Positions 2,136-58,790 of a stretch of 64,000 nt of DNA are shown here, in pieces. The translations under genes and the position numbers were made by a program. Source of the DNA: an uncultured Dehalococcoidia bacterium (GTDB lineage: Bacteria; Chloroflexota; Dehalococcoidia; Lucifugimonadales; UBA826). The stretch is from NCBI GenBank assembly GCA_964500645.1, contig CAZCOH010000001.1:24967-88966 (forward strand), in the 5' to 3' direction. Positions within the stretch are counted from its first letter, which is position 1. Each line of letters starts with the position of its first letter. Under the pieces are notes generated by a model. It saw only the letters and a program-made list of their open reading frames with translations. It did not search any database and was not told where the DNA came from.

Positions 2136-3254
2136 TCAGCCGACCTTGTATCTATTCAAAAACTCCATATTAAGCTCAAATCCAATACCTGGTCTATCCG
2201 GAACAGTAACAAACCCATCACTATCAGGAAGCATCCTAGGAAGAAACATTTCCGCACGGATTGGATCAACTGCAACCGGATAATATTCCAAGAATTCCCC
2301 ATGTGGTATTGCTGCAGCAAGAGGAAGTTGAAGCTCCTGGCAACCATGAGGGGCAATAGAAACTCCTCTTTCCAGAGCAAGATCTGTAACATCCTTGGCA
2401 ACATCGTATCCAGGACAAATAGTCACATCTACATTCAAAATATCCGCTCCATTATGATCAAGTAATGTTTCAAAGTGAGCCAAATGATATCCATTCTCGC
2501 CGGTTGCAATCTTCACATTTGAAACATCTCGGAGCTTACCGTGTTCCTTGTATCTATGTATAGGCATTGGCTCCTCAAACCAGTAAACATCAAATTTATC
2601 AAGCTCTTCTGCAAAGGTGAGAGAATCTTCTAAGTTAAGAGCACAATTGGCATCCGCCATAAGAACGACCGAATCCCCTACAGCTTCACGAGCAGCTTCT
2701 ACCCTTTTAATGTCTCCTACAATGCCTACATGCGGATCACCTATTTTTATTTTCACAGCTCCAGCATGCATCTCATCAACGTTGAATTTAACTTCTTCCT
2801 GTAGTTCTTTTATACCTTTATTTTCAGCGTAATATCCTCCAGCAATATAAGTCCTAATCCTACTTTGGGAACCTCCTAAAAGCTGGTGGATAGATTTACC
2901 GAGTGCCTTTCCCTTAATATCCCAGCATGCAATATTTATCGCAGCTAAAACCTGGGTGTTGACACCTCCAGGGCCGAGTATTTTTATATGCTTTTCGCCA
3001 AGATCATCCACGATACCTCGAGTATCCATAGGATCCCTTCCGATCAAAAGTCCCCTGAAATAATCGACAAAAGGCGGGAATATATTCAATGGTCTCTCTG
3101 CAGCCGTACCCCCATTCCAACCATAACCTTCTATCCCCTCATCTGTCTTAACAGTGACCTTATGCAACCTACCAGGACCATAAAAGTGACCACCATTCCA
3201 TATTCCTGGACGTTCCCACTCAAATACCTCACTGATTACGTCCGTGATTTTCAT
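2136..3254 (-). CDS. Enolase-superfamily enzyme (mandelate racemase/muconate lactonizing family, acid-sugar dehydratase-like)
   Basis: 372 aa. MKITDV start, capping domain, KIKIG (KxK), ADAN, FEEP and ATGE metal-ligand motifs. Confidence 0.9.
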   Translation of the reverse strand: MKITDVISEVFEWERPGIWNGGHFYGPGRLHKVTVKTDEGIEGYGWNGGTAAERPLNIFPPFVDYFRGLLIGRDPMDTRGIVDDLGEKHIKILGPGGVNTQVLAAINIACWDIKGKALGKSIHQLLGGSQSRIRTYIAGGYYAENKGIKELQEEVKFNVDEMHAGAVKIKIGDPHVGIVGDIKRVEAAREAVGDSVVLMADANCALNLEDSLTFAEELDKFDVYWFEEPMPIHRYKEHGKLRDVSNVKIATGENGYHLAHFETLLDHNGADILNVDVTICPGYDVAKDVTDLALERGVSIAPHGCQELQLPLAAAIPHGEFLEYYPVAVDPIRAEMFLPRMLPDSDGFVTVPDRPGIGFELNMEFLNRYKVG

Positions 3255-4430: not shown

Positions 4431-5513
4431 ATGGCACAACCAAGAGAAATAATATTATCTGTAGTAGATCAGTCACCAATTAGACGTGACGGTACTCCAT
4501 CTGAGGCTCTCAATGAGTCTGTAGCTTTAGCTATACATGCTGAAAAGGCAGGATACTCTAGATACTGGGTATCTGAGCATCACAATTCGAGTTCATTTTC
4601 AGGTACAAGCCCAGAAATATTGATAGGGCAAATTGCAGCGAACACTAAAACTATACGAGTTGGTAGTGGTGGCGTGATGTTGAGCCATTACTCAGCTCTG
4701 AAAGTCGCCGAGCAATTCAGCATGCTGGATTCTTTCTATCCTGGACGAATTGATCTGGGAATAGGTAGAGCCCCCGGAAGCGATCGCAGAACTGCAGCCG
4801 CCTTAACATACCCGAGACCAACGATGGATGTACAAAGTGACTTTGCCCAAATGATTAAAGACCTATCTCAGTTTTTAGATGAGGGTATAGACGATACGAA
4901 TCCTTTACACGGCATCGTAGCCCATCCAGGAGGAAAAAAAGAATCCTCTCCAGAAATATGGCTTCTCGGTTCCAGTGACTACAGTGCAAGATTAGCAGCG
5001 GAATTAGGACTTCCTTTTAGCTTTGCTGATTTCTTCGGAAATACATCTGAATACGGACCTCAGGTTGCTGAAATATATAGACGCAATTTCAGACCATCTC
5101 AGTACATATCAGAGCCTCAATTGAATGTAGCTCTTCAGGTCATATGTGCAGATACAGAAGAAAAAGCAAAGTTCGTGGGATCATCACGAAGCCTGAACAA
5201 AGTTCTATCCCGACTAGGACTATCCACAAAAGGATTGATACCCCCGGAAGAAGCAAATGATTGGCCACTGGAAGAACATGCAAAGGCATATATAGAACAC
5301 GAAACTAAAAGTTACATTGAAGGAGATCCATCCCAAGTTCTGGACGGAATATTCAACGCATCTGAAAGGTATGAAACTTCAGATATAGGAATAGTTTCCA
5401 ACTGCTATTATTTTGAAGATCGCAAGAAGTCTTATTCTCTGGTTGCTGAACACCTGATTGGATCCACTCCTAAAAACGAAACATCCAACGAAACATCATA
5501 TGTTGAGAACTAG
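4431..5513 (+). CDS. LLM-class (luciferase-like) flavin-dependent oxidoreductase
   Basis: 360 aa. ...GYSRYWVSEHHNSSSF..., ...GGVMLSHYSALKVAEQF..., ...IDLGIGRAPG... are typical of the YhbW/MsnO8-like LLM subgroup. Confidence 0.85.
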   Translation: MAQPREIILSVVDQSPIRRDGTPSEALNESVALAIHAEKAGYSRYWVSEHHNSSSFSGTSPEILIGQIAANTKTIRVGSGGVMLSHYSALKVAEQFSMLDSFYPGRIDLGIGRAPGSDRRTAAALTYPRPTMDVQSDFAQMIKDLSQFLDEGIDDTNPLHGIVAHPGGKKESSPEIWLLGSSDYSARLAAELGLPFSFADFFGNTSEYGPQVAEIYRRNFRPSQYISEPQLNVALQVICADTEEKAKFVGSSRSLNKVLSRLGLSTKGLIPPEEANDWPLEEHAKAYIEHETKSYIEGDPSQVLDGIFNASERYETSDIGIVSNCYYFEDRKKSYSLVAEHLIGSTPKNETSNETSYVEN

Positions 5514-7093: not shown

Positions 7094-8734
7094 TTGGAAA
7101 ACAAGCCCAATATAATACTCATACTAGCTGATGACATGGGATATTCCGATCTGGGGTGTTACGGCTCAGAAATTCAGACTCCAAATATTGATTCCCTAGC
7201 TGAAAACGGAATCTTATTTTCCCAAATGTATAACTCCGCGAGGTGCTGCCCATCTCGAGCTGCTTTGTTAACAGGTTTAAATCCGCACCAGGCAGGTATA
7301 GGTCACATGGTATCCACTTTCGGAATTCAATCACCATTACATTCTGGGCCGTATCAAGGTTATCTAAACAAAAATTGTGCAACTATTGCAGAAGTTCTTA
7401 GAATTAGTGGTTATTCTACTTACATGTCAGGAAAGTGGCATGTAGGTGGTGGATATGACCTCGTAAACGAAAAGTCATGGTCCGCAGGTGCTGAAGGTAA
7501 CCCGATTCCCACACAACGCGGATTTGATGAGTTTTTTGGAATTGTTGCCGGAGCTGCAAATTATTTTCATCCTCGCACCTTAATGAAGAACGATACTTTC
7601 ATAGGGATTGGTGAAGATTCTTTTTATCTGACAGATGCAATTAGTGATGAAGCAGTGTCAATGATCGATGACGCTTCACAAAAAGACAATCCATTTTTCA
7701 TGCATATTGCTTACACTGCACCCCACTGGCCTCTCCACGCGTTAGAAGAAGACATAGCCAAATATGAGGGAACCTACAAGATGGGATGGGACAACCTCAG
7801 AGCTAACAGGCATGAAGAACTAAAAGGCAAAAAAATACTGGATGCAAAATGGGATATATCTCCCCGAAATTCTTCTTCACAATCATGGAAAACATCGAAA
7901 GACAAAACTTGGGAAGATCTGCGAATGTCAGTGTATTCAGCCATGATAGACAGAATGGACCAAGGCATTGGCAAAATTCTAAAGAAACTCAAGGAATTAA
8001 ATATGGAGGATAATACGATTCTGATGTTTCTTTCAGACAACGGAGGCTGTGCTGAATTTCTAGCCGAAGATTCAAACAGACCGTCACCGTCCCAATACAG
8101 TTCTCCAACACGAGATGGTCGATCCATTAAAGTAGGGAACCGAAAAGACTTACGCCCTGGGCCTGATGATACTTTCATGAGCTACGACTTATCTTGGGCA
8201 AATGCAAGTAATTCTCCATTCCGTCTATTCAAAAGATGGACTCATGAAGGTGGAATTTCAACCCCATTTATTGTCAGTTGGCCTAATAAAATAAAGCGAG
8301 CACAGATAGCACATTCACCAACACACATAATAGATATTGCAACCACTATTTATGAAATCACCGGTGCAAACTACCCTGATGAAATGTACGGCCAAGAAAT
8401 CAAGCCACTGGAAGGAGAAAGTTTTTATGGAGCTTTTGAAAATGAAAAATGGCAACGTAAATCTCCAATATTCTGGGAACATGAAGGTAGTCGGGCAGTC
8501 CGTGATGGAGAGTGGAAACTCGTTTGCGAGGTAGGGTCGAATTGGGAAATTTATAATATGTCCCAAGACAGAACAGAGCTAACAAACCTTTTGAATGAAG
8601 AACAAGACAGGGTTCATAGGATGAAGGTCCAGTATCGTGAATGGTCAGATAGATGCGAGGTATCCGAATGGCCGGTTCATCAATCTAGGTGGGATCCCAA
8701 AATGATCTCCACACATGCCCATAGCTCAGGATAA
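7094..8734 (+). CDS. Arylsulfatase (Cys-type, formylglycine-dependent)
   Basis: 546 aa. ILILADDMGYSDLGCYG and the signature ARCCPSRAALLTG (C-x-P-x-R). SD AAAGGAGG precedes the TTG start. Confidence 0.9.
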   Translation: MENKPNIILILADDMGYSDLGCYGSEIQTPNIDSLAENGILFSQMYNSARCCPSRAALLTGLNPHQAGIGHMVSTFGIQSPLHSGPYQGYLNKNCATIAEVLRISGYSTYMSGKWHVGGGYDLVNEKSWSAGAEGNPIPTQRGFDEFFGIVAGAANYFHPRTLMKNDTFIGIGEDSFYLTDAISDEAVSMIDDASQKDNPFFMHIAYTAPHWPLHALEEDIAKYEGTYKMGWDNLRANRHEELKGKKILDAKWDISPRNSSSQSWKTSKDKTWEDLRMSVYSAMIDRMDQGIGKILKKLKELNMEDNTILMFLSDNGGCAEFLAEDSNRPSPSQYSSPTRDGRSIKVGNRKDLRPGPDDTFMSYDLSWANASNSPFRLFKRWTHEGGISTPFIVSWPNKIKRAQIAHSPTHIIDIATTIYEITGANYPDEMYGQEIKPLEGESFYGAFENEKWQRKSPIFWEHEGSRAVRDGEWKLVCEVGSNWEIYNMSQDRTELTNLLNEEQDRVHRMKVQYREWSDRCEVSEWPVHQSRWDPKMISTHAHSSG

Positions 8735-10060: not shown

Positions 10061-11161
10061 TTATTCAACAGTTGCGGTGTATTCTTTCTTCAACAGATCC
10101 CAATCAATTTCATATCCCAATCCAGGTTTGGTAGGAGCATGAACAACCCCCCCGTCAAAAACAATATCCTCTACTAACCCGTACATGTTTGCACCTGTGC
10201 ATGGAAAGAATTCGAAAAATTCGCAATTAGGCACAGCCATTGTGACATGAAGATTTGCAACGTTATTAAGAGAATTACCGCCATGGTGTATCTCACACTT
10301 CATGTTAAATCCCTCGGCGAGATGAGCTAGTCGTATCATGGGAGTAATACCACCAGTAACGGCGACATCTCCTCGCAAAATATCAGTCGCATATTGAGTA
10401 ATCCACGACGTCATCCCATAATAGCGGCCCGGTGCATATTCAGTAGACATTATAGGAATATCAAGCTTCTGATGAAGCTTGATATAGTTATATATATCCT
10501 CCTCAACCAAAGGATCCTCATACCAATAAAAGTTTAAATCTTCTATAGCCCTTCCTACGCGAAGAGCATCCTCATACTGATAAGCCCACATGGAATCAAG
10601 CATCAATTTCATATCCCCACCAACAGCATCACGAACAGCTTCTGAAATTTCAATATCGTACAATGGGTCACCGTGCGGATGTATCTTGTGTGCTGTCCAC
10701 CCCATTTCTTTAAATCTAATAGCTTCTTCCGCGTATTCTTCTTTAGTTTCATGATAAGCAGTGCTGGAATACACAGGAACCGTTTCTTTACAGGTTCCTA
10801 GAAGCCTGTGAATAGGTTGATTAGCTATTTTTCCATTTATATCCCACAAGCAAATATCAACTGCACCGATGACGTAAGTTGATACAGACCTATTCATTTT
10901 CCATAGATCCCACCATATGGCCCCAATATCCTGCGGATTACGACCCATAATAATTGGCTTAATAAATTCTATGAGACCGGGTGCGAAATGGTCAGCCCCA
11001 ACACGGGAGGAACCAAGAAAAGCGTTCCCATTTATTCCTTCGTCGGTCTCAACAGTAACCACACCCAGTTGGCGAGTCTTTCCGAAACTGGTACCAACCC
11101 CTGTTTTCCATGGCTCAGAATCCCAGTTAAACATATCTACTTTTACGTTGGTGATTTTCAC
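10061..11161 (-). CDS. Enolase-superfamily enzyme (mandelate racemase-like), paralog 2
   Basis: 366 aa. MKITNVKV start, ...CLWDINGK..., LDSMWAY, YEDP and STEY motif positions. Confidence 0.88.
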   Translation of the reverse strand: MKITNVKVDMFNWDSEPWKTGVGTSFGKTRQLGVVTVETDEGINGNAFLGSSRVGADHFAPGLIEFIKPIIMGRNPQDIGAIWWDLWKMNRSVSTYVIGAVDICLWDINGKIANQPIHRLLGTCKETVPVYSSTAYHETKEEYAEEAIRFKEMGWTAHKIHPHGDPLYDIEISEAVRDAVGGDMKLMLDSMWAYQYEDALRVGRAIEDLNFYWYEDPLVEEDIYNYIKLHQKLDIPIMSTEYAPGRYYGMTSWITQYATDILRGDVAVTGGITPMIRLAHLAEGFNMKCEIHHGGNSLNNVANLHVTMAVPNCEFFEFFPCTGANMYGLVEDIVFDGGVVHAPTKPGLGYEIDWDLLKKEYTATVE

Positions 11162-17148: not shown

Positions 17149-17523
17149 CTAACTCGACGTAGGCCTTGATAATATGTACCAAGTTCCTATAAGAGCCAGA
17201 ATCAACACCGGGATTTTGAACCAAAAAATATTATAGGGAGCAATCATAGATATCCCTGAAAATATCCATATGCAAGAAACAGATATGATTTTAGCTTTTC
17301 GCGGCATAGCACCAGTTTCCAGAAACCCTTTAACCAGTTTTCCAAACACTTTGTGTTCAGTTACCCAGCGATACATTTTCTCATTTGATCTTAGAAAGCA
17401 AGAAGCCGCTAAAATTAAGAAAACAGTACCCGGTAGACCCGGTAATATATAACCGGCTATACCTAGTCCCAAAAAGAAGAACCCGGCAACATATAAAAGA
17501 TAAATGCGAAATCGATGAAACAT
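17149..17523 (-). CDS. DUF454/YbaN family inner-membrane protein
   Basis: ...GIAGYILPGLPGTVFLILAASCFLRSNEKMYRWV... is the YbaN signature region. The track ORF extends to a TTG at 17616; I prefer ATG 17523. Confidence 0.7.
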   Translation of the reverse strand: MFHRFRIYLLYVAGFFFLGLGIAGYILPGLPGTVFLILAASCFLRSNEKMYRWVTEHKVFGKLVKGFLETGAMPRKAKIISVSCIWIFSGISMIAPYNIFWFKIPVLILALIGTWYILSRPTSS

Positions 17524-17647
17524 TCCTGATTTATAACCTTGATCAACAGATTCAGTAACGCCAAGGATAAAGGGTATCACGACTGATACGAGGCACAAAT
17601 ATCCCCTAAATATCAAAGTGGGAATAAGTGGAGACGAGAAAACCCAA

Positions 17648-18433
17648 ATGAGACTTCAAAACAAAGTAGCAGTAATAACTGGAGGTGCCTCAGGCATGGG
17701 ACGCGCAGCTGCAGAATTATTTTCTGCTAACGGGGCGGCAGTGGTAATAGCTGGCCGAAGATTTTCTGAAGGGGAAAAAGTCGCCGAAAATATCAAAGAG
17801 AACAACAAAAATGATTGTATTTTCGTACAGACAGACGTTTCGGATCCTGAGCAAACTTCGGAGCTAATGGCTAAGACAAAAGAAGCGTTTGGAAAAATAG
17901 ATATCCTGTTTAATAATGCGGGCATTAACAACCATTTAGAAGGTGATCCACATAATGAAGATATAGAAATTTTTGAGTCCGTCATAGACGTCAATTTGAA
18001 AGGTTCATTTCTGTGCACAAAATACGCCGTACCTTACATGATTGAAAACGGTCAAGGGTCGATAATAAACAATTCTTCAGTACTTGACAGTCGAGCTGCC
18101 AACAACTCCTCTACTTCATACCACGTGTCAAAAGGAGGATTAGCTATGTTGACCAAAAAGTCAGCTTTGGCTTATGCCAAATACAATATAAGAGTCAACA
18201 CAATCCAACCTGGAGCCATAGCTACAGAAATGTCTGGGATTAATTGGGATGAATTAACAGAAGACTCTGTGATCAAAAGACGATCAAGTATTCAGCCTCT
18301 ACAAAAAATGGGACATCCATATGACGTTGGATACGCTGCACTATATTTTGCATCTGATGAGTCCGGTTTTGTTACTGGTTCAACATTGCTTGTGGACGGC
18401 GGCATGAGTGCCGCCTACTCACCATCCCGATAA
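17648..18433 (+). CDS. Short-chain dehydrogenase/reductase (SDR)
   Basis: MRLQNKVAVITGGASGMGRAAA, NNAG, S...YxxxK (YHVSK). The track ORF starts at GTG 17618. Confidence 0.9.
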   Translation: MRLQNKVAVITGGASGMGRAAAELFSANGAAVVIAGRRFSEGEKVAENIKENNKNDCIFVQTDVSDPEQTSELMAKTKEAFGKIDILFNNAGINNHLEGDPHNEDIEIFESVIDVNLKGSFLCTKYAVPYMIENGQGSIINNSSVLDSRAANNSSTSYHVSKGGLAMLTKKSALAYAKYNIRVNTIQPGAIATEMSGINWDELTEDSVIKRRSSIQPLQKMGHPYDVGYAALYFASDESGFVTGSTLLVDGGMSAAYSPSR

Positions 18434-31309: not shown

Positions 31310-31801
31310 TTATTGCGAAGAACCACTTTCGATCGAAATGAGTCGATCATAATCAGGCAATGAATAGCTTTTATCAATCACTTGCCCATTTGATTCAATC
31401 ATCACAAATCCAGGAACAGAAATTACAGAATAAGATCTTTTTAGAGATAGACCGAGAGAAGAATGTACATCCACCCTCGCAACAATCCATTTACTACCCA
31501 ATCGTTTCTCTAGTCTGTCAACGGCAGACTTCGTAGATAAACAACCAATTCAATAATCTGAATAAAGTTGCAATAAAACCGGTGTATTCCTAGTAAACAA
31601 AGCCTCCCAATCAGATTGAGTCTCCACATTAGGCTGTCTAATCGATCGAGTTTGCTGAAAAACACCTACTGCAACCAACAATAGTACGAGCGTTACAGCA
31701 GAAGCCTGCCACGAAAAAAACCTTGATGCTACCAACCATATTATTGGCAGACCTAAGAGAGCGATTATAAAAAAAGAATACTGATTTAGAAGAGCATACA
31801 T
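31310..31801 (-). CDS. Candidate selenoprotein: membrane-anchored thioredoxin-fold protein with U-I-G-C (in-frame TGA at 31552..31550)
   Basis: Track ORFs 31550..31801 and 31310..31501 share a frame and are separated by one TGA. The joined 163 aa product has two N-terminal helices, then ...VLLQLYSDY-U-IGC... and ...YSVISVPGFVMIESNG... (Trx active site and cis-Pro region). Hairpin downstream of the TGA. Confidence 0.6.
31512..31530 (-). promoter_or_regulatory. Candidate bacterial SECIS-like hairpin
   Basis: mRNA AGUCUG-CCGUUGA-CAGACU (6 bp stem, 7 nt loop containing GU) begins 19 nt after the in-frame UGA. Confidence 0.4.
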
Positions 31802-31810
31802 TGGTACATT

Positions 31811-31853
31811 AATTGTAAAACAAATACGGACTGCCCCGGTAGGGCAGTCCGTA
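31811..31853 (-). terminator. Rho-independent terminator of the small Cys-rich gene
   Basis: Perfect 12 bp GC-rich stem TACGGACTGCCC/GGGCAGTCCGTA with a 5 nt loop, followed on the minus strand by TTTGTTTT. Confidence 0.75.
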
Positions 31854-31882
31854 TAAATACAGATCTCTAATCTAATAAGATA

Positions 31883-32077
31883 CTAATCAGCAGCCACCAT
31901 GTCATGGCCGCAGCACATGGGCGACTTTATCTTGCCGCATCCATTACTGCATTGAGCGACACCAACAGTAGTACCATCATCTTTCTCTATAACTGCATGT
32001 GTTAATTCTGTTCCACATTTACCACAGGTAATATTGTGAACTTCCATTCCACAATCTCCACAACTGTAATTAGACAT
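31883..32077 (-). CDS. Small Cys-rich (zinc-ribbon-like) protein, unknown function
   Basis: 64 aa with 9 Cys: CGDC-x8-CGKC ... C-x3-C ... CCGH. Strong SD AAGGAG precedes the ATG and a strong terminator follows. Confidence 0.65.
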   Translation of the reverse strand: MSNYSCGDCGMEVHNITCGKCGTELTHAVIEKDDGTTVGVAQCSNGCGKIKSPMCCGHDMVAAD

Positions 32078-36995: not shown

Positions 36996-38120
36996 ATGAA
37001 AATTACAGATATAACAGTTAATCGGATTCGGTCGCCTCAGGGAGAAAACGTAAGAAGCTTCGTTGGCAGACCGGGAAGGCTACTTCTTCAAATTCACACA
37101 GATGAAGGAATTACAGGAATTGCGGAGGCAAGCCGGAACCTAAAAATAGTGAAGGCGTACGTAGATGAATTAATAAAACCACTACTCGTAGGTACAGACC
37201 CATGTAGACCAAGAAAGATATGGGAACTGTTATCTCTAGGTGAGGGACAACAGGCAACCAGATTTCCTTCTCAAATAGTAGGATCGATTGATGTGGCTCT
37301 CTGGGATATAAGTGGTAAAGCTGCCAACATGCCAATATACAAATTACTAGGAGGGGCTCGTAGGACAGATATACCTCTTTACTGGAGTAGAGGGAACGGA
37401 TGGAGTAAATCCCCTGAAGAAATGCTGGAAGAAGTTCAAGAAGGGTATGACAAAGGTTATCGTTCATTCAAAATAAGAATGGATTGGCGGGATTACAGAC
37501 AGGACGCAGATCCAAAAAAAGACTTTGCTCTATTTAAGAAATGTCGAGAATGGTTACCAGATGACTGTCCACTTAGTTTCGATGCTAACTGCGGTTATTC
37601 AGTTCCTACGGCTATCGAACAGGGTCGAAGATTTGAAGAAATGGGAATTGCACACTTTGAGGAACCCTTACCTCAATACGATTTTCCCGGCCTAAAACAA
37701 GTGGTAGATGCTCTGGATTGTTCAGTGTCTACAGGAGAGCAAGAAATATCGTCCTGGAGATTTAGAGATTTAATAGAGCTAGGAAATCCAGACATTCTAC
37801 AGCCAGATGTTTTAAACGTGGGGGGATTATCTGAAATGATCAGGGTTTATGAAATGGCTGTAGTTCACAATAAAATTGTCATGCCTCACAGTCCAAGCGT
37901 TGGGGCAAACTCAATGGCGAGTCTCCACCTTTATTCAACCGTCACAAACGCTGTCCGTCCTCACGAATTCTCCGAAGAATTTACTGGACCTGCTGAAGAG
38001 GTGTCAAAACTGTATAAGGAACCAGTCCTTCCGAAAAATGGAACGATCTCTCTTCCTGACAGGCCGGGTCTCGGACTCGAACTTGACCCCCAGGCATTAA
38101 AAGAATTTATAGAGGAATAA
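36996..38120 (+). CDS. Enolase-superfamily enzyme (mandelate racemase-like), paralog 3
   Basis: 374 aa. MKITDITV start, ...ALWDISGK..., FKIRMD, FDANCG, FEEP, STGE. Confidence 0.88.
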   Translation: MKITDITVNRIRSPQGENVRSFVGRPGRLLLQIHTDEGITGIAEASRNLKIVKAYVDELIKPLLVGTDPCRPRKIWELLSLGEGQQATRFPSQIVGSIDVALWDISGKAANMPIYKLLGGARRTDIPLYWSRGNGWSKSPEEMLEEVQEGYDKGYRSFKIRMDWRDYRQDADPKKDFALFKKCREWLPDDCPLSFDANCGYSVPTAIEQGRRFEEMGIAHFEEPLPQYDFPGLKQVVDALDCSVSTGEQEISSWRFRDLIELGNPDILQPDVLNVGGLSEMIRVYEMAVVHNKIVMPHSPSVGANSMASLHLYSTVTNAVRPHEFSEEFTGPAEEVSKLYKEPVLPKNGTISLPDRPGLGLELDPQALKEFIEE

Positions 38121-39728: not shown

Positions 39729-40112
39729 ATGTCAGAATCTTTCGAGCGGGGACTTCAAACCAGGAAAGAAGTTCTGGGCGCAGAATACGTGGAAAATTCC
39801 ATAAAAAATGCTACTCCTTTTGATCTACCATTTCAGGAATTTGTCACTGAGTCAGCCTGGGGCAATGTCTGGACCAAAGGGCCCCTAGATAGAAAGACAA
39901 AAAGCATAATAACTTTGTCTGTACTCGTAGCGTTAAGAGCCGAAGATGAGATAGCACTCCATATCCGTGGGGCAGTAAACAATGGAGTAACCCCTGAAGA
40001 AATTATGGGTCTGTTGATACATGCCTCGGTTTACGCAGGGGTACCATCATCACTGTCAGCAGTCCGAGTGGCCAAAAGAGTATTAACTGAAATGGGGAAA
40101 ATAAACACATAA
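39729..40112 (+). CDS. Carboxymuconolactone decarboxylase family protein (PcaC-like)
   Basis: 127 aa. ...WGNVWTKGPLDRKTKSIITLSVLVAL... and ...HIRGAVNNGVTPEEI... Confidence 0.8.
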   Translation: MSESFERGLQTRKEVLGAEYVENSIKNATPFDLPFQEFVTESAWGNVWTKGPLDRKTKSIITLSVLVALRAEDEIALHIRGAVNNGVTPEEIMGLLIHASVYAGVPSSLSAVRVAKRVLTEMGKINT

Positions 40113-44920: not shown

Positions 44921-47194
44921 ATGACTTCAGAACCAAATTTTCAAGGCAAAATTGGGAAAACCTACAAAGACTCGATACCAGACTGGAAAGAACCGCCTTC
45001 CACTCATGATGGAAACTCACCCAATGTACTTATAATTCTCCTCGATGACACCGGGTTTGCTAATTTCGGATGCTTTGGCTCTACGATCGAGACCCCCAAT
45101 ATTGACTCACTCGCCTCAAATGGTCTCAGGTATTCAAATTTTCACGTTACTCCACTATGTTCACCAACAAGGGCTTCATTACTGACAGGCAGAAATCACC
45201 ACACCGTCGGCATGGGATCGATCGGTAACTACCATGACGCTGGATTCCCAAATCTTAGAGGACTCGTGAGTAGAAATGCCGCTCTACTTTCGGAAATGCT
45301 CAGAGAGGAGGGGTATGCCACTTATGCTCTAGGCAAATGGCATCTAAATCCTTCGGAAGAAACTTCAGCCGCCGGCCCCAGACACGGATGGCCTCTACAG
45401 AGGGGTTTCGATAGATTTTATGGATTCCTTGCCGGAGCCACAGATCAATTTTATCCCGAGCTAAGCTACGACAATCATCCTGTTGATCCCCCTAAAACAC
45501 CCGAGAACGGATATCACGTAACAGAGGATCTTGTCGATCACGGAATTCAATTTATAAACGACCAGAAATCCATTTATCCAAACACTCCGTTTTTTATGTA
45601 TCTTGCGACCGGTGCGATGCACTATCCACACCAGGTTCCGAAAAAATATATAGAAAAATATCGCGGCAAGTTTGATGAAGGATGGGATGTGATAAGAGAA
45701 AGGTATTTCAACAAGCAACTTGAACTTGGGATCATACCTGAAAATACTAAACTTCCTCCCAGGAATCCCGGAGTGCAACCCTGGAACGAGTTGGGGGAAA
45801 ACGAAAAGAAATTCATGTGCAGACTTCAGGAAACGTGGGCAGGTTTCCTCGACCATACTGATGAGCAAATAGGAAGACTCATTGACCATCTTAAGTCTAT
45901 AGGTGAGATCGATAACACAGTCGTCATAATTACAGCAGATAACGGAACCAGCCAAAATGGTGGCCCCTATGGTGTAATGAGAGTGGGCCCAAGTTCAGCT
46001 CGAAATGCGGCCAATGACGGAAGAACTGTTGGTGAAGAGATCGGACTGCCCACCATAGAAGAGAATTTCTCAGAGATCCAATCCATTCTTGATGAAATAG
46101 GTGGCCCAAAGAGCTACACAGATATTCCATGGGGATGGTCACAAGTAGGAAACACTCCACTTAGATGGTACAAACAAGATACCCACGGTGGTGGTGTGCG
46201 GGTACCTATGATCGTTCATTATCCTTCTTCATCAGATCAAGGGTCCACAAGTGGAAAGATTCGAAACCAGTTTCATCACGTAAGTGACATTACGCCTACT
46301 GTGCTGGACATACTTTCTATAGAACCAAGATCAAGTTACCTTGGTTACGATCAAATACCAATTTCGGGTACTAGCTTTGCTTACACACTAAGAAAAGAAA
46401 ACGATGACCAATCTCAAAAGAAAGTTCAGTATTTTGAGATGTCCGGGAACCGGGCAATATGGTCGGAAGGCTGGAAGGCGGTCACGCGCCACAGAAAAGA
46501 CGATGATTATGACTCAGAAACATGGGAACTCTACAACCTTACCGAAGACTTCTCTGAAACAAATGACCTGTCTGAATCCGAACCAGTAAGACTGAAAAAG
46601 ATGATTGAACTATGGTGGAGCGAAGCAGAAAAACATGGGGCCCTACCATTGGACGACAGATCCTTTGAAAAAACCGGCCCCAGTAAACAACCTGGCGCAT
46701 ATCACGAAGACCTACACTACCATTACAAAGCCCCTCTATCCCATATATCCTCACCATTATCACCGCAGATATTAAGAGGTGACTGGACCCTTACGGCAGA
46801 TATTACTATCGATAATCATGAGACTGAAGGAGTTATATATTCCCAAGGGTCTTCTATGGATGGATTTTCACTTTTCATCAAAGAAAACAAGCTTAACCTG
46901 TCACACAAGTCATCGGGCAGCGAAACCCGCTTACAATCCACAGAGTCACTGGACGTCGGTAGAGTAACTATAGTCCTACATAGCAATGACGATTCTGAAG
47001 GTGGGTTGTCAATTTCAATGCATGTAGATGATAAAAACTTCGGAATAGTCTCAATCGACAGTAAATCTAAAGGATCCCGAATGGGCACGGATGTGGGAAA
47101 AGACGCATTATCTCCCATTTCTGATGCATATGATGCTCCTTTTCCTTTCACAGGAACAATACATACCGTCGATATCGTGGTTGTACCGGGATGA
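44921..47194 (+). CDS. Arylsulfatase (Cys-type), long form with a C-terminal beta-rich extension
   Basis: 757 aa. VLIILLDDTGFANFGCFG and PLCSPTRASLLTG (C-x-P-x-R). About 200 aa of extra C-terminal domain. Confidence 0.9.
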   Translation: MTSEPNFQGKIGKTYKDSIPDWKEPPSTHDGNSPNVLIILLDDTGFANFGCFGSTIETPNIDSLASNGLRYSNFHVTPLCSPTRASLLTGRNHHTVGMGSIGNYHDAGFPNLRGLVSRNAALLSEMLREEGYATYALGKWHLNPSEETSAAGPRHGWPLQRGFDRFYGFLAGATDQFYPELSYDNHPVDPPKTPENGYHVTEDLVDHGIQFINDQKSIYPNTPFFMYLATGAMHYPHQVPKKYIEKYRGKFDEGWDVIRERYFNKQLELGIIPENTKLPPRNPGVQPWNELGENEKKFMCRLQETWAGFLDHTDEQIGRLIDHLKSIGEIDNTVVIITADNGTSQNGGPYGVMRVGPSSARNAANDGRTVGEEIGLPTIEENFSEIQSILDEIGGPKSYTDIPWGWSQVGNTPLRWYKQDTHGGGVRVPMIVHYPSSSDQGSTSGKIRNQFHHVSDITPTVLDILSIEPRSSYLGYDQIPISGTSFAYTLRKENDDQSQKKVQYFEMSGNRAIWSEGWKAVTRHRKDDDYDSETWELYNLTEDFSETNDLSESEPVRLKKMIELWWSEAEKHGALPLDDRSFEKTGPSKQPGAYHEDLHYHYKAPLSHISSPLSPQILRGDWTLTADITIDNHETEGVIYSQGSSMDGFSLFIKENKLNLSHKSSGSETRLQSTESLDVGRVTIVLHSNDDSEGGLSISMHVDDKNFGIVSIDSKSKGSRMGTDVGKDALSPISDAYDAPFPFTGTIHTVDIVVVPG

Positions 47195-48300: not shown

Positions 48301-49986
48301 TTAAGTTCTATCACTGATCTCGACAGTTTGTGTTGGCCCGTTCAAGAACATGACCATACTTTTGCCAGCCGGCCCACCAAACGACATCAGTTCTATCTTC
48401 TCTGGACGTTCAAATCCAGGAAATTCAGTTGTGCGAGCTTGATCACTGGGAAGATCTAATATCCATCGCCAAGGTTTTAATAGAAATGATGGGTTAATTC
48501 TGAAGCTATTTTGCAAGGAAGCAGCACTAATTTTTGTGTTGGCCCACAAGAAATCTCTAACCATTTCTTTAGACCAACCTTCCTTGGCGCATATTTCAGC
48601 ATGATCAGGAGCCAATATAACGATTGTTCCGGTACCGCCCTCAGGATCGTATGGATCAGGATCAGACCAACGCAGGCTGGTGTAGCCACCACGCCCGGTG
48701 ATGGCCCCGGATACACCTCGAAGAAGTGGCTCCGGTTCGTAATTGTTAAGGTCTGCGGCATCGATAATGTTTCTCACGCCTCCTACTGTGACTGTAGAAG
48801 AAGATTGTGAAAATCCTTTTGAGGTGTGAAATTGAGGCCATATCTCCGGGAAATTGTCTTGGGATTCCGCGGCACACAGACTGAATTTTGCTGCAGAACC
48901 AATTGTGTCCATATCCATTTCACCAGGATAGTTGTGCCCTACGTTCATTAAAGTAAGTCTCAGTGCTCTGCCTAGAATAACGTTGACTCTAGATTGCCTT
49001 CCTGGGCCTAACGTAGCCTGTTTGGAATTAATACCGAGTTCGTCGACAATTGGTCCGTTTACAAGCATAAAAGGGGCGTCTGGAGAGGTAGACATTAACC
49101 ATTGTCGTGCTCTTCCTCCCATTTGTATGATTGATTTACACGCCGCAATTATGATGGGAAGGTGCGCTGGTTCGCATCCGGCCATTGCACTAGAAATAGC
49201 AATTTTTTTGACTGTAGCGATCCCCATACCCGGAGGCAAATGGCCCACTATCTGCTCTGAAGGTAGAGTTGTACCAGAAAGCAGTTCATTCACCCTTTCT
49301 TCTGTTGGAGGAACTAGAGGAAAGCCATCACCCCACCCTTTATCGAGGAAATCTTTATTGAAATTTTCCCAAGCGTCTAACTTATCTTTCCCTTTAAAAG
49401 TTATTGATGGACCGTCTGCTCTGTAGGCTTCTACATCAGAGGAATCTATTGTTAAAGAGTCTGGGTTTGTTAGACCATTAACAATTGAGTCGATTTGCTT
49501 CTCTATTTCTCTACTCGATTCTTCTGGGCTGACTGAGGTTATAACGCAGGGAATAGTTACGAACGGAGCAGTTTCCATTCCAAAAGCTTTCGCTGTTGCT
49601 ACTGTATCTTTCTGGAAACCAGAAGAAGCTATTGAAACTGTTGGAAGCCCCTTTCTTTCAAGATAAATCATGTCGTGGACAAGCCACGACGTACATTGGC
49701 CTCAATCTGAAGAAGAACCAACAGCGACATCACATTCTTTAGCGACTTTATCTAATACAGCCGTCGGAGTTGGTATTCCACCTTCATATAGTGTCACATC
49801 GATGTGTTTATACTTTTCTTTAAGTTTAGTTCCTACCCTGTTAAGCACAGCATCTCCACCTCTTTTACGATTCCAGACTAGCCCAACCTTTAGTCCGTCA
49901 AGGTTGTTTGGTCTTATTGCTGGATCTGTGGTTTGAGCTGGTCCTCTTAATTCAGACACAGGATTTAGGACATGTAAATCCGACAT
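48301..49986 (-). CDS. Candidate selenoprotein: UGSC-like module (U-G-Q-C, in-frame TGA at 49704..49702) fused to a large uncharacterised domain
   Basis: Track ORFs 49702..49986 and 48301..49671 share a frame, separated by one TGA plus 10 sense codons: ...ECDVAVGSSSD-U-GQCTSWLVHD-MIYLERKGLP... A 7 bp hairpin starts 11 nt after the TGA. Strong SD GGAGG precedes ATG 49986. Confidence 0.6.
49672..49690 (-). promoter_or_regulatory. Candidate bacterial SECIS-like hairpin
   Basis: mRNA GUCGUGG-CUUGU-CCACGAC (7 bp stem, 5 nt loop containing GU) starts 11 nt downstream of the in-frame UGA. Confidence 0.45.
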
Positions 49987-50147: not shown

Positions 50148-51284
50148 TCACCATTGAACAAACATCGGCATTACAACGTGGGTGTAACCTTCTTTACCTG
50201 TTGAACGTACCACGCCCGGACTGGAAGGATTCGTCATCTCGAAGGCAACCTCACCGTCACCCAGAACGTCAAGAACTTCCGATAGATATTTATTGTTAAA
50301 TGCTATCCGGGAGTCTTCATCCACCTCCCCATTAACATCTCCGTCAATCTCACCCTGATTGTCACCAAGTTCTTCAGCTCTTGAAGATATTGATATACCA
50401 GACCCCTCTTCACCATCCATGATCTGTACTCTGACAATTCCACTACCGTCTCTTGCAAATATGGAAGCGGACCGAACAGCTCTCATAAAATCTGATTGCT
50501 GGACTATTACGCTATTTCTGTGATCTTCAGGTATTAGAGACCTGAAATTAGGAAAAGCACCTGGCATAAGCTGTGACACAATTTCAACGGTCCCTATATT
50601 AAAGAGAGCATGTGTTCCGGCTGAGGTTACGGTGAATTCAACTTCTGAATCATCGCTGCCAATTAATCTTCCAACCTCCTGCATAGCTTTTGCAGGAATA
50701 ATAAACTCTGACGGCTCAGGAAGTGGTTCTGATAGTTTCCCTTCATAAACTGCCAACCTGAAACCATCTGCGGCTGCAAAGGTAAAATCATCGCCGTTTA
50801 CTTCAACTTTTATCCCGGTAAGTACAGGGCGTGAATCTTCGGTTGCTGCAGCAAAAGCCACATGGGCAATAGTCTCTCTCAGTACCTGAGGATCAATTTT
50901 GATTGTGGATCCCTCATCTACAGTTGGTATTGGAGGAAATTCTTCAGCATCTGTTCCATTTATGTTCGCTTCAAATCTCTGACATTTTAGAGAAGTACTT
51001 AAGGGATCAGGAGTGGTCTTAATATCAATCCGGTCATCCGGTAGGGAATTAACAAAGTCGGTGAGAAGTCTTGCAGGAATTGTTACCTCACCTTCCTGTT
51101 CAACCTGAGCACCAATCTTGGTAGTTATAGCTATATCCAGATTAGTGGCTGTCAGGACAAGCATACTGTCTTCTGTGGATATTTTAACATTCTGCAACAC
51201 TGGCAAATTGCTACGTGTAGCAACAGCCCGTCCCACGATAGCTAATCCTCTGCTTAAATTCTGTTGAAGGCATGATACCTGCAT
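50148..51284 (-). CDS. dnaN: DNA polymerase III beta sliding clamp
   Basis: 378 aa. MQVSCLQQNLSRGLAIVGRAVATRSNLPVLQNVKI... Three-domain length, C-terminus ...HVVMPMFVQW. Terminates with TGA. Confidence 0.92.
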   Translation of the reverse strand: MQVSCLQQNLSRGLAIVGRAVATRSNLPVLQNVKISTEDSMLVLTATNLDIAITTKIGAQVEQEGEVTIPARLLTDFVNSLPDDRIDIKTTPDPLSTSLKCQRFEANINGTDAEEFPPIPTVDEGSTIKIDPQVLRETIAHVAFAAATEDSRPVLTGIKVEVNGDDFTFAAADGFRLAVYEGKLSEPLPEPSEFIIPAKAMQEVGRLIGSDDSEVEFTVTSAGTHALFNIGTVEIVSQLMPGAFPNFRSLIPEDHRNSVIVQQSDFMRAVRSASIFARDGSGIVRVQIMDGEEGSGISISSRAEELGDNQGEIDGDVNGEVDEDSRIAFNNKYLSEVLDVLGDGEVAFEMTNPSSPGVVRSTGKEGYTHVVMPMFVQW

Positions 51285-57431: not shown

Positions 57432-58790
57432 TTACTGGTCATAAGTTGTGCGCCATGCCCCAATGGCGGGTCGGTCCAACCCAAGATGATGCCTCAACGT
57501 AGGCCCTGTGTAGTCTTCCCTGTAGACCCCGCGTTTTTGTAATTCAGGAACAACAAACTTCACAAAATCCTCAAACGCACCGGGCTGGTGGGTTGGGCCA
57601 ACTACAAACCCATCGCATGCCGGAGAGTGAAACCATTCTTCCATCTCATCAGCAACCTCTTTTGGCCCACCGACAAATGTGATGCTATCACTTAATAAGC
57701 CTCTTCTGGTTATACGCATAAAATCCCGCACCGTTGGATTCGTGACCCCGGTGGAAATAACCCTGTCCCTCATTGCTTGCATACCCTGAAGACCTTCAAG
57801 CTCTTCATCTGTAAATTCTTCATCCATTCCCTTTTTAGCAAAATCGAAGTTGAGAGCTTCAGATAAAAGTAACAACTGATCCATATCATTAGAGAGCAAC
57901 TCATATGCCGCTTTTTTGTCTTCTGCCTCACTTTTAGTCTCAGCCACAATTGGATACATGAGAGCAGCAATCTTCATATGGTCAGGATTACGACCAGCGT
58001 CTTCAGCGGCTAATTTTAAAGCAGAATATTCAACTTTCCCTACTTCACTATTCCTGTAACCTGCAAATATCAACTCCCCCCACCGGGCGGCAAACTCCTT
58101 GCCCCTGGAACTCGCACCGGCCTGCATCACTACTGGGTGGCCCTGCGGGCTCCGAGGTACGGTGAAAGGGCCCCGGGAACTGAGAAATTCACCTTTATAG
58201 TCGATGCGCCGAACTTTGTCCGGATGGGCGTATAAGTTGTTTACCTTATCCACGACTACAGCATCATCATCCCAAGAATCCCAATGCCTTAAAACAACCT
58301 CTACAAATTCATCCGCACGGTCGTACCTGAGGTCATGTTCCGTGTGGCTCTCCCTACCCATATTCAAAGCCTCGTTGTCGTTGACTGATGTCACCACATT
58401 CCAGGCAGCTCTTCCTTTAGTCATCAAATCTAGAGTTTGAAACAATCGAGCAACGTGAAAAGGCTCAAAATAGGTAGTGGAATAAGTAGCGCCTAACCCA
58501 AGATGCTTTGTCACGGAACCCATCGTCATCAAGCAAGTTACTGCATCCAGCTTGGTACATCGAATCCCGTTCTTTACAGTCTCGGAGTGATCACCGGCAT
58601 ACATATCAGGCATCGCAAGTCTGTCATCAAAAAATCCAACATCAAATTTTCCATGTTCTAAGACCTGAGCGATGTGCTGGTAGTATTCCGGCGAATAAGT
58701 ATCGATACGTGCCTCCGGATGCCTCCAGGAAGAAGGCAAAGTCGTGCAATTCTGAGCTTGAAGAAAAGCAACCAGTGACATTTGGCGCAT
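57432..58790 (-). CDS. LLM-class FMN-dependent monooxygenase, NtaA/SnaA/DszA subfamily
   Basis: 452 aa. ...LPSSWRHPEA..., ...FDVGFFDDRLAMPD..., length with insertion typical of NtaA/DszA. SD AGGAGAGG. Confidence 0.88.
   Translation of the reverse strand: MRQMSLVAFLQAQNCTTLPSSWRHPEARIDTYSPEYYQHIAQVLEHGKFDVGFFDDRLAMPDMYAGDHSETVKNGIRCTKLDAVTCLMTMGSVTKHLGLGATYSTTYFEPFHVARLFQTLDLMTKGRAAWNVVTSVNDNEALNMGRESHTEHDLRYDRADEFVEVVLRHWDSWDDDAVVVDKVNNLYAHPDKVRRIDYKGEFLSSRGPFTVPRSPQGHPVVMQAGASSRGKEFAARWGELIFAGYRNSEVGKVEYSALKLAAEDAGRNPDHMKIAALMYPIVAETKSEAEDKKAAYELLSNDMDQLLLLSEALNFDFAKKGMDEEFTDEELEGLQGMQAMRDRVISTGVTNPTVRDFMRITRRGLLSDSITFVGGPKEVADEMEEWFHSPACDGFVVGPTHQPGAFEDFVKFVVPELQKRGVYREDYTGPTLRHHLGLDRPAIGAWRTTYDQ

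Follow-up and report, generated by a model that had tools for sequence, protein, structure and literature searches.

An in-frame TGA at the active site of a membrane-anchored thioredoxin-like protein from an uncultured Dehalococcoidia bacterium: a probable selenoprotein gene

Introduction

What is the role of a single TGA that interrupts an otherwise open frame at the active site of a thioredoxin-like protein? The question is raised by a minus-strand locus, 31801..31310, in a 64,000-nucleotide stretch of contig CAZCOH010000001.1 (assembly GCA_964500645.1, positions 24,967 to 88,966), which derives from an uncultured Dehalococcoidia bacterium of the Chloroflexota and whose whole length is referred to here as the window. 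An earlier sequence-only reading proposed that two short open reading frames (ORFs) at this locus are the halves of one selenoprotein, with the TGA encoding selenocysteine (Sec) in place of the nucleophilic Cys of a C-x-x-C motif. The comparative analysis described here indicates that 31801..31310 is very probably a genuine selenoprotein gene, in which TGA is read as Sec at the catalytic site.

Gene structure and reading frame

The frame runs from an ATG at 31801 to a TAA at 31312..31310 (163 codons plus the stop) and its sole internal stop is the TGA at 31552..31550, which is codon 84. The ORF list divides it into a segment of 83 amino acids (aa) with an ATG start (31550..31801) and another of 63 aa called from a TTG (31310..31501), the distance from TGA to TTG being 48 nt, or 16 codons. 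Sequence and frames thus bear out the original description of two half-ORFs in the same frame with this gap and this lone interruption. The joined product of 163 aa reads MYALLNQYS...YSDY-U-IGCLSTK...SSQ, with ...PVLLQLYSDY-[TGA]-IGCLSTKSAVDRLEKRLG...SVISVPGFVM... in its middle region, and hydropathy places the two hydrophobic N-terminal helices that had been noticed in it at residues ~8-28 and ~30-50. The features of the gene are the following.

31310..31801, minus strand: coding sequence of the predicted selenoprotein, based on sequence and frame, seven close loci, selection on both sides of the TGA and the family alignment.
31550..31552, minus strand: TGA, putative Sec codon 84, the nucleophile in the redox motif U-I-G-C, based on thioredoxin (Trx) alignment, eight TGA lineages and ~25 Cys homologs.
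31541..31543, minus strand: TGT codon of Cys87, the resolving Cys of the U-x-x-C motif, in a column that is invariant in the family alignments.
31652..31780, minus strand: predicted two-helix membrane anchor, with transmembrane helices TM1 at ~8-28 and TM2 at ~30-50 separated by the short basic loop SRFFSW, based on hydropathy, a homolog model and the family charge pattern.
31313..31624, minus strand: thioredoxin-fold domain, residues ~60-163, with the codon of cis-Pro130 at 31412..31414, based on Pfam PF00085, alignments to PDB thioredoxins and a homolog model.

A scan of TGA-joined frames across the window leaves only two cases that are not explained by an overlapping real gene, namely 31801..31310 and 49986..48301. 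Because the frame is one of these two, and because its TGA column is conserved in eight lineages, the observation is confirmed as real and as more than a chance pairing of ORFs. The remaining TGA-joined pairs of the window are short or contain several TGA codons, lie antisense to or overlap real genes, and were rejected as chance; in one of them, 17149..18033, a DUF454 gene is extended into the antisense of an SDR gene. An AhpD/CMD-like ORF at 39729..40112, considered as a CxxU selenoprotein, was also rejected, as it has no CxxC or CxxU motif and ends in an ordinary stop.

Conservation of the TGA and of the frame on both sides of it

Seven close loci (L001-L007), which include a Tara-derived metagenome-assembled genome (MAG) labelled 'uncultured Dehalococcoidia bacterium', were collected by protein search and contig look-ups, and their products are 88-96% identical to that of the window gene. 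All seven keep the TGA, with zero indels, a common final stop and an intact downstream frame of 79 codons. The ratio of non-synonymous to synonymous polymorphism (pN/pS) in frame is 0.24 before the TGA and 0.13 after it, against 1.1-1.5 out of frame downstream of the TGA (1.1-1.7 overall in the other two frames). Most changes before and after the TGA are therefore synonymous, as under purifying selection, which means that the segment after it is translated in the frame of the segment before it. Among these loci the strongest DNA conservation of the gene is found in the ~57 nt around and after the TGA.

A word-indexed search with the joined protein returned just two truncated N-terminal fragments and missed the family. 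An exhaustive HMMER search, in which the 79 residues after the TGA were run against 1.84 billion representatives, gave 30 matches of three kinds. The first are fragments of 63-81 aa that begin at, or a few residues past, the x-G-C that follows the TGA column; the second are three entries of 138-166 aa with Trp at that column (P0009, P0011 and P0014); the third carry Cys there and comprise full-length proteins of 161-173 aa as well as some shorter forms. The underlying DNA was examined for seven lineages of the fragment and Trp kinds (L008, L009, L010-12, L013/14, L015, L016 and L017/18), and every one of them has an in-frame TGA at the identical column, at roughly 30-45% identity, and never TAA or TAG. 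Their motifs are YSNF-U-VAC, YSDY-U-VGC, YSNY-U-VAC, YSDY-U-VSC, YSDL-U-IGC, FTNT-U-VGC and QSEY-U-IAC, and two transmembrane helices precede the TGA wherever the contig extends far enough. With the lineage of the window, the TGA column is thus conserved in eight divergent lineages, with the overall consensus U-[IV]-[GAS]-C.

When the family alignment was used for a profile search, ~20 further full-length Cys forms of 160-179 aa came to light, giving ~25 full-length Cys-form homologs with the same architecture of two-helix anchor and Trx domain. They are mostly from Chloroflexota; where a source is named, it is a Chloroflexi or Anaerolineae MAG, and the annotation reads hypothetical protein or thioredoxin. 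Among their motifs are CVGC, CIGC, CIAC, CAGC, CASC and CSGC, and the C-x-x-C aligns with codon 84. The columns without variation in the family are those of Sec/Cys, of the resolving Cys and of the cis-Pro. The two comparisons that the sequence-only reading had proposed, for Cys-bearing homologs and for the state of codon 84 in orthologous loci, thus came out in its favour: full-length Cys homologs exist, TGA is kept in seven close loci and seven divergent lineages, and the downstream frame is not degraded. Judged from these alignments, the protein is a member of a mostly Chloroflexota family that uses Sec in some lineages and Cys in others.

Protein fold, family placement and membrane topology

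With Cys in place of the TGA, residues 60-144 match the Pfam family Thioredoxin PF00085 (26.4 bits against a cutoff of 23.5; E 7.1e-6), and alignment to solved thioredoxins in the PDB places the TGA on the first Cys of W-C-G-P-C. The thioredoxin pattern with the TGA at the first active-site Cys, recognised at the outset by eye, is thereby recovered by both methods. As a stand-in for the window protein, the Cys-form homolog P0044 was modelled with AlphaFold2 from the family alignment. The model (predicted local distance difference test, pLDDT, 87.4; predicted template modelling score, pTM, 0.77) has long helices at residues 11-28 and 34-54, followed by an extra helix and the order beta-alpha-beta-alpha-beta-beta-alpha, with the CxxC residues 87-90 at the start of alpha1 and the invariant Pro. 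Foldseek aligns it to E. coli TrxA-type structures with a target-normalised TM-score of ~0.8 and a root mean square deviation of ~2.2 A, and it is closest in structure to cytoplasmic-type TrxA, not to DsbD or TlpA. On this model, the product is predicted to be a canonical Trx fold behind a two-helix membrane anchor.

Placement within the thioredoxin superfamily is less specific. The protein scores 26.8 bits against the TrxA equivalog model TIGR01068, whose cutoff is 96.8, so that it is Trx-like and not a TrxA ortholog. Weak resemblance in sequence is found to the C-terminal region of DsbD (PRK00293, E 3e-4; TsoB, NF045694, E 2.7e-4; DsbD gamma chains in the PDB, E ~1e-3); the scores of 19 bits lie far from the DsbD and TsoB cutoffs of 330 and 805, and the protein has two transmembrane helices only.

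The side of the membrane on which the Trx domain lies was considered from the distribution of charges in two subfamilies (alignments A3 and A4: P0033-P0053 compared with the window protein, L008-L013, P0018, P0022, P0032, P0038, P0043, P0044, P0051 and P0052). In the NQYS subfamily, to which the window protein belongs (14 members), the loop between the helices contains ~32 K/R against 4 D/E, no charges are present at the N-terminus and the linker that follows TM2 has a net acidic character. By the positive-inside rule, this pattern suggests that the Trx domain is extracytoplasmic. The question of an extracytoplasmic domain, raised with the original proposal, is in this way answered in part: the charges of the subfamily favour an outward domain, whereas the window protein taken singly is ambiguous, with one K/R in the loop and two just after TM2, a point that counts against the outward orientation. 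The sister FNHRAYP subfamily shows the opposite charges, with a basic N-terminus and an acidic loop, and the contrast between the two subfamilies is a hint that members of one family may lie in the membrane in opposite orientations.

A conserved hairpin downstream of the UGA

31512..31530, minus strand: putative selenocysteine insertion sequence (SECIS)-like hairpin, with 5' arm AGUCUG (31530..31525), loop CCGUUGA (31524..31518) and 3' arm CAGACU (31517..31512), based on folding and comparative data.

The hairpin AGUCUG-CCGUUGA-CAGACU, with GU in its loop, had been pointed out 19 nt 3' of the UGA, and both the sequence and its folding agree; the spacing from UGA to loop is 25 nt. All eight Sec lineages have, at the identical position and spacing, a 6-bp stem and a 7-nt loop of the form NNGU[U/G]GA, with 6/6 pairs in six lineages and 5/6 in two, and the GU at loop positions 3-4 is invariant among them. 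RNAalifold returns the hairpin as the sole consensus structure, with double (compensatory) changes at 4/6 pairs, such as UCU...AGA to CCU...AGG, AAG...CUA to AAA...UUA and, in L016, G-C to A-U and U-A to C-G. Paired cells amount to 96.3%, against 11-44% in controls with slid partners, and the covariation score was matched by none of 500 shuffles. The structural check thus gave a hairpin conserved with covariation in every Sec lineage.

As the hairpin sits within the conserved peptide K-[PS]-x-V-D-R-L, an amino-acid-preserving null was built, in which the peptide is fixed and only synonymous codons vary. Under this null the individual lineages give P ~0.04-0.10 and their Fisher combination p ~1e-4, the lineages not being fully independent. 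These results support the view that the hairpin is maintained by selection beyond the constraint of the protein.

In comparison with the consensus for the bacterial SECIS (bSECIS), which has an apical loop of 3-9 nt, an upper stem of 4-16 bp, a spacing of 16-37 nt from UGA to loop, a minimum free energy (MFE) of -7.5 kcal/mol or lower and a loop G at position 1-2 (PMC13188914), the 7-nt loop, the 6-bp stem and the 25-nt spacing all fit. The 58 nt from the UGA onwards also fit, with an MFE of -12.9 kcal/mol, while the minimal hairpin of 31 nt has -6.5 kcal/mol. The inner C-GU[U/G]-G matches the pattern N1-G-U-N-N2 only if the outer N.A is counted as closing; this outer position is a U-A pair in L016 and L017, which fit strictly, and a C.A mismatch in the window. 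An extended lower stem that ViennaRNA predicts in the window, with GGUUGUUU/AAACGAUU and UCU/AGA pairing, was discarded, as it is not conserved in the other lineages. The search of Rfam (gathering thresholds, E <= 10) yielded noise only, with no SECIS-type match near either this UGA or that of the second gene described below, the presence of a bacterial SECIS model in Rfam being unconfirmed.

Several observations weigh against the hairpin as a dedicated SECIS element. The peptide K-[PS]-x-V-D-R-L alone already gives ~4/6 pairs, the lineages are statistically non-independent and the loop G stands at position 3 and not at 1-2, a near miss to the strict consensus. The folding energy is unexceptional (z = -1.3 to -1.9 against shuffles), and since it is not exceptional by itself, the support for the hairpin comes from the comparative data. 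Three Cys-form genes were sampled, and one of them, L019, pairs 6/6, while L020 pairs 4/6 and L021 3/6, so that in this three-gene sample the hairpin is not exclusive to Sec forms. L021 has the near-identical peptide K-S-A-V-D-R-I, encoded by codons that do not pair. The gene at L019 (296..670, protein P0015, motif CLGC) carries a perfect hairpin, AACCGG-CGGUGGA-UCGGUU, at the SECIS position, with Arg encoded by CGG. This hairpin may be left over from a recent change from Sec to Cys, may have arisen by chance (P ~0.05 under the amino-acid-preserving null) or may indicate that the element has another role.

A probable second selenoprotein gene in the window

48301..49986, minus strand: candidate second selenoprotein gene, with a UGSC-family domain and a large C-terminal domain, based on sequence, NF041046, PF24696 and folding.

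The other unexplained TGA-joined frame of the window lies ~18 kb from the Trx-like gene and has its TGA at 49704..49702 on the minus strand, within the motif D-U-G-Q-C; the stop-to-stop segments around this TGA measure 321 nt and 1401 nt. Its N-terminal domain matches NF041046 UGSC_fam over model positions 2-146 of 147 (E 7.9e-31, 107 bits). This score lies below the equivalog cutoff of 125 bits, as is expected for a fusion protein, and PF24696 UGSC recognises the post-TGA part with 38.5 bits against a cutoff of 25. The TGA thus falls in a U-G-x-C motif, as in the UGSC family; the gene differs from that family in its U-G-Q-C motif and its score below the equivalog cutoff. The C-terminal domain of ~390 aa has no family match. 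Global Ocean Sampling (GOS) data had already revealed UGSC fused with a conserved unknown domain, 'Unknown_1' (PMC2398784).

A hairpin follows this UGA as well, after 11 nt: GUCGUGG-CUUGU-CCACGAC at 49690..49672, with 7 bp and a loop, CUUGU, whose G is at position 4, which makes it a poorer fit to the bSECIS consensus than the hairpin of the Trx-like gene. That two in-frame TGA cases within 18 kb lend each other support, as had been argued, gains substance from the match of this gene to a curated (seleno)protein family, and this match supports the use of Sec in the genome.

Further background agrees with such use. In BSepDB, few bacteria are as rich in selenoproteins as marine Dehalococcoidia MAGs, which have 46-49 of them (PMC13326102), and tRNA(Sec) species of Chloroflexi have been described (PMC5389517). 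An 8/4 acceptor/T-stem type of this tRNA is reported for Chloroflexi. Among the papers searched, none names selenoproteins together with SAR202. Against Sec use stands the content of the window, where profile scans of the 52 large ORFs and ARAGORN found no selA, selB, selD or tRNA(Sec) within the 64 kb.

Alternative readings of the TGA

The alternative that survives best, although we regard it as very unlikely, is that UGA is recoded to a residue other than Sec, either to Cys through a tRNA(Sec)-like tRNA(Cys) or to Trp or Cys by near-cognate read-through. Delivery of Cys by such a tRNA in the SECIS/SelB manner is a known phenomenon. The many Cys forms of the family indicate that Cys is functionally acceptable at codon 84, the Sec at codon 84 is a prediction from sequence, and the lack of Sec machinery genes in the window is compatible with this alternative. 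The window, however, also holds the UGSC gene, which matches a curated selenoprotein family, and large selenoproteomes are documented for Dehalococcoidia MAGs. A conserved structure at SECIS distance argues for SelB-type recoding over leaky read-through, and if Cys were the residue, selection would more simply have fixed TGT or TGC, as it has in the Cys lineages.

A true stop is less probable still. On this reading the locus is a pseudogene or split gene that yields a two-helix membrane peptide of 83 aa, perhaps with a separate fragment of 63 aa starting at TTG 31501, and it can appeal to the public gene callers, which list just such 83-aa and 63-aa 'hypothetical proteins' of Dehalococcoidia bacteria, and to the rest of the window, where TGA is an ordinary stop. 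Yet the TGA stays in frame throughout the eight lineages, never out of frame and never replaced by another stop, and the pN/pS of 0.13 measured after it is that of a translated segment. The 16 codons between TGA and TTG are particularly telling, as they contain the invariant resolving Cys and show, across the Sec lineages, a coding-constraint ratio of 0.39 in frame against 0.96 and 1.39 in the other frames; this constraint across eight lineages excludes a pseudogene or two independent genes. The original remark that neither half-ORF makes sense alone holds as well, since each half is a Trx fold severed at its active site and the TTG start is not conserved, the fragments of other lineages being called from different codons.

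Reassignment of the genetic code (codes 4 or 25, with TGA as Trp or Gly and residue 84 as Trp) is scarcely credible: TGA closes 11 of the 52 large ORFs of the window, so the code is not reassigned, internal TGA occurs in only two window genes, Trp as the CxxC nucleophile would abolish redox chemistry where all non-TGA homologs have an invariant Cys, and the three database proteins with W at this column that might speak for it (P0009, P0011 and P0014) are gene-caller artefacts, because their codon is a TGA read by code 4 and the entries cannot be translated to the stated protein under table 11. The loci tied to this artefact are L008 251..736, L009 289..705, L017 63..563 and L018 167..667.

Relation to known selenoproteins

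With Sec as the favoured reading of codon 84, the gene would add to the well-known UxxC Trx-like selenoproteins a member that is new or at least not curated. Few marine selenoprotein types are commoner than UxxC Trx-like proteins; the GOS data contain 321 sequences of Trx-like 1, in addition to Trx-like 2 and 3 (PMC2398784), and PMC13188914 refers, in its ref. 84, to an experimental study of a selenoprotein Trx (PF00085, UxxC).

The window protein shares with the Trx-type UxxC selenoproteins ('Trx-like 1', COG0526, in GOS; PMC2398784) the PF00085 fold, Sec in place of the first CxxC Cys at the N-terminus of alpha1, a marine bacterial origin, many Cys homologs and a SECIS-like hairpin just downstream, inside the coding sequence. 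It differs from them in its two-helix anchor with the conserved NQYS motif, in the family motif U-[IV]-[GAS]-C in place of U/C-G-P-C, in its mostly Chloroflexota distribution and in lying far below the TrxA cutoff. DsbD offers another comparison, with a Trx domain that follows transmembrane helices in both, an extracytoplasmic Trx domain suggested by the charges of the window protein's subfamily, and the weak matches to the DsbD C-terminal region; the window protein, in contrast, is without the DsbD beta (CcdA-like) domain, has no CcdA/DsbD gene nearby and does not come close to the cutoffs of these families. The NCBIfam models SaoT (NF040730), HUIPC-motif (NF047660) and VPGUxxT (NF041383), which are listed in PMC13188914, likewise describe small Trx-fold proteins whose redox motif contains Sec, but none of them matches the joined protein at E <= 0.01. 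The NCBIfam release searched holds no curated selenoprotein model for the window family.

In public records the gene appears on hundreds of contigs as two short hypothetical proteins (63-aa examples are MBR98298.1 and MFL2783921.1), and JGI labels some of the C-terminal halves 'thioredoxin-related protein'.

Proposed mechanism

The position of U-I-G-C at the N-terminus of alpha1, together with the anchor, leads us to propose a membrane-tethered thiol/selenol:disulfide oxidoreductase. In the mRNA, the hairpin at 31530..31512 would act as a bacterial SECIS that recruits SelB-GTP-Sec-tRNA(Sec) while the ribosome has UGA84 in its A site, so that Sec would be inserted and translation would run on to the TAA. 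The mature protein would be tethered by its helical hairpin. Sec84 would be the nucleophile that attacks substrate disulfides or sulfenic/selenenic species, and Cys87 would resolve the mixed intermediate to a selenenylsulfide, to be recycled by a reductant. Actual Sec insertion, binding of SelB and a redox role of the 163-aa protein are what we infer from the conserved sequence features.

Genomic neighbourhood

31824..31854, minus strand: terminator-like hairpin of 14 bp (8 G-C pairs) with a T-run, between the Cys-rich ORF and the start codon.
31883..32077, minus strand: upstream neighbour, a Cys-rich ORF of 64 aa (CGDCG...CGKCG...CSNGCG...CCGH), listed as context, with no functional link shown.
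Loci with an upstream peroxiredoxin gene: L001, 205..675; L006, 79..546; L007, 2359..2826; L013, 1..318.

The terminator-like hairpin ends ~22 nt before the ATG of the putative selenoprotein gene, and a TACAAT stands at 31817..31812. This arrangement suggests that the gene is transcribed alone or by read-through, with a very short or absent 5' leader. On other contigs, gene callers ran through the terminator hairpin and produced spurious N-terminal extensions (P0001 and P0002).

Neither Pfam nor NCBIfam has a match for the Cys-rich ORF. Its product is 100% identical in L003-L005 despite the divergence of the adjacent selenoprotein, and 62% identical beside the divergent Sec forms L017/L018; its homologs form 70 clusters, some with hundreds of members, from marine SAR202/Chloroflexota where an organism is named. 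It may be a metal-binding protein or a redox partner. In L001, L006, L007 and the divergent Sec lineage L013, the gene directly upstream of the Trx-like gene encodes instead a BCP/PrxQ-type peroxiredoxin of 156 aa (PGAFTGGCQEEAC), which is 83% identical in L013 and whose place is occupied by the Cys-rich ORF in the window lineage. This peroxiredoxin is a candidate substrate of the Trx-like selenoprotein. Both recurrent neighbours are leads for partners and not evidence, and their recurrent adjacency makes a partnership with the BCP-type peroxiredoxin or the adjacent small Cys-rich protein possible.

Beyond this locus, the gene content of the window is typical of SAR202-type Dehalococcoidia, with three enolase-superfamily (MR_MLE) genes, two luciferase-like monooxygenases, at least six MFS transporters, two sulfatases and a family III CoA-transferase (example coordinates of this content are 2136..3254, 10061..11161, 36996..38120, 4431..5513, 57432..58790, 7094..8734 and 44921..47194). 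The UGSC selenoprotein gene is adjoined by dnaN, at 50148..51284, and a LexA gene and a heavy-metal P-type ATPase are nearby.

Significance

The understanding of Sec decoding is unchanged by this gene, which belongs to the commonest structural class of selenoproteins. It is a clean example of a selenoprotein overlooked by standard pipelines, having been split, or given a Trp from the wrong code, at NCBI, ENA and JGI on hundreds of marine contigs, and the Trp-for-TGA artefact offers a convenient flag for concealed selenoprotein genes. Joining the halves mends the annotation in an abundant ocean lineage, SAR202/Dehalococcoidia, and adds a Sec/Cys family that the curated NCBIfam selenoprotein models do not match.

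A more far-reaching picture, which we consider speculative and rather improbable as a whole, is that of an undescribed, mostly Chloroflexota membrane-tethered (seleno)thioredoxin whose outward Trx domain would serve as a redox module of the envelope, with the peroxiredoxin and/or the Cys-rich 64-aa protein as partners, and whose SECIS would have evolved inside the alpha1 peptide K-P-x-V-D-R-L, each constraining the other. For the organisms themselves, whose large selenoproteomes are known, the gene would add a membrane-anchored selenothioredoxin to the redox toolkit, and its family, with eight Sec lineages and ~25 Cys forms, provides material on the exchange of Sec and Cys and on how a SECIS is accommodated within a conserved protein helix.

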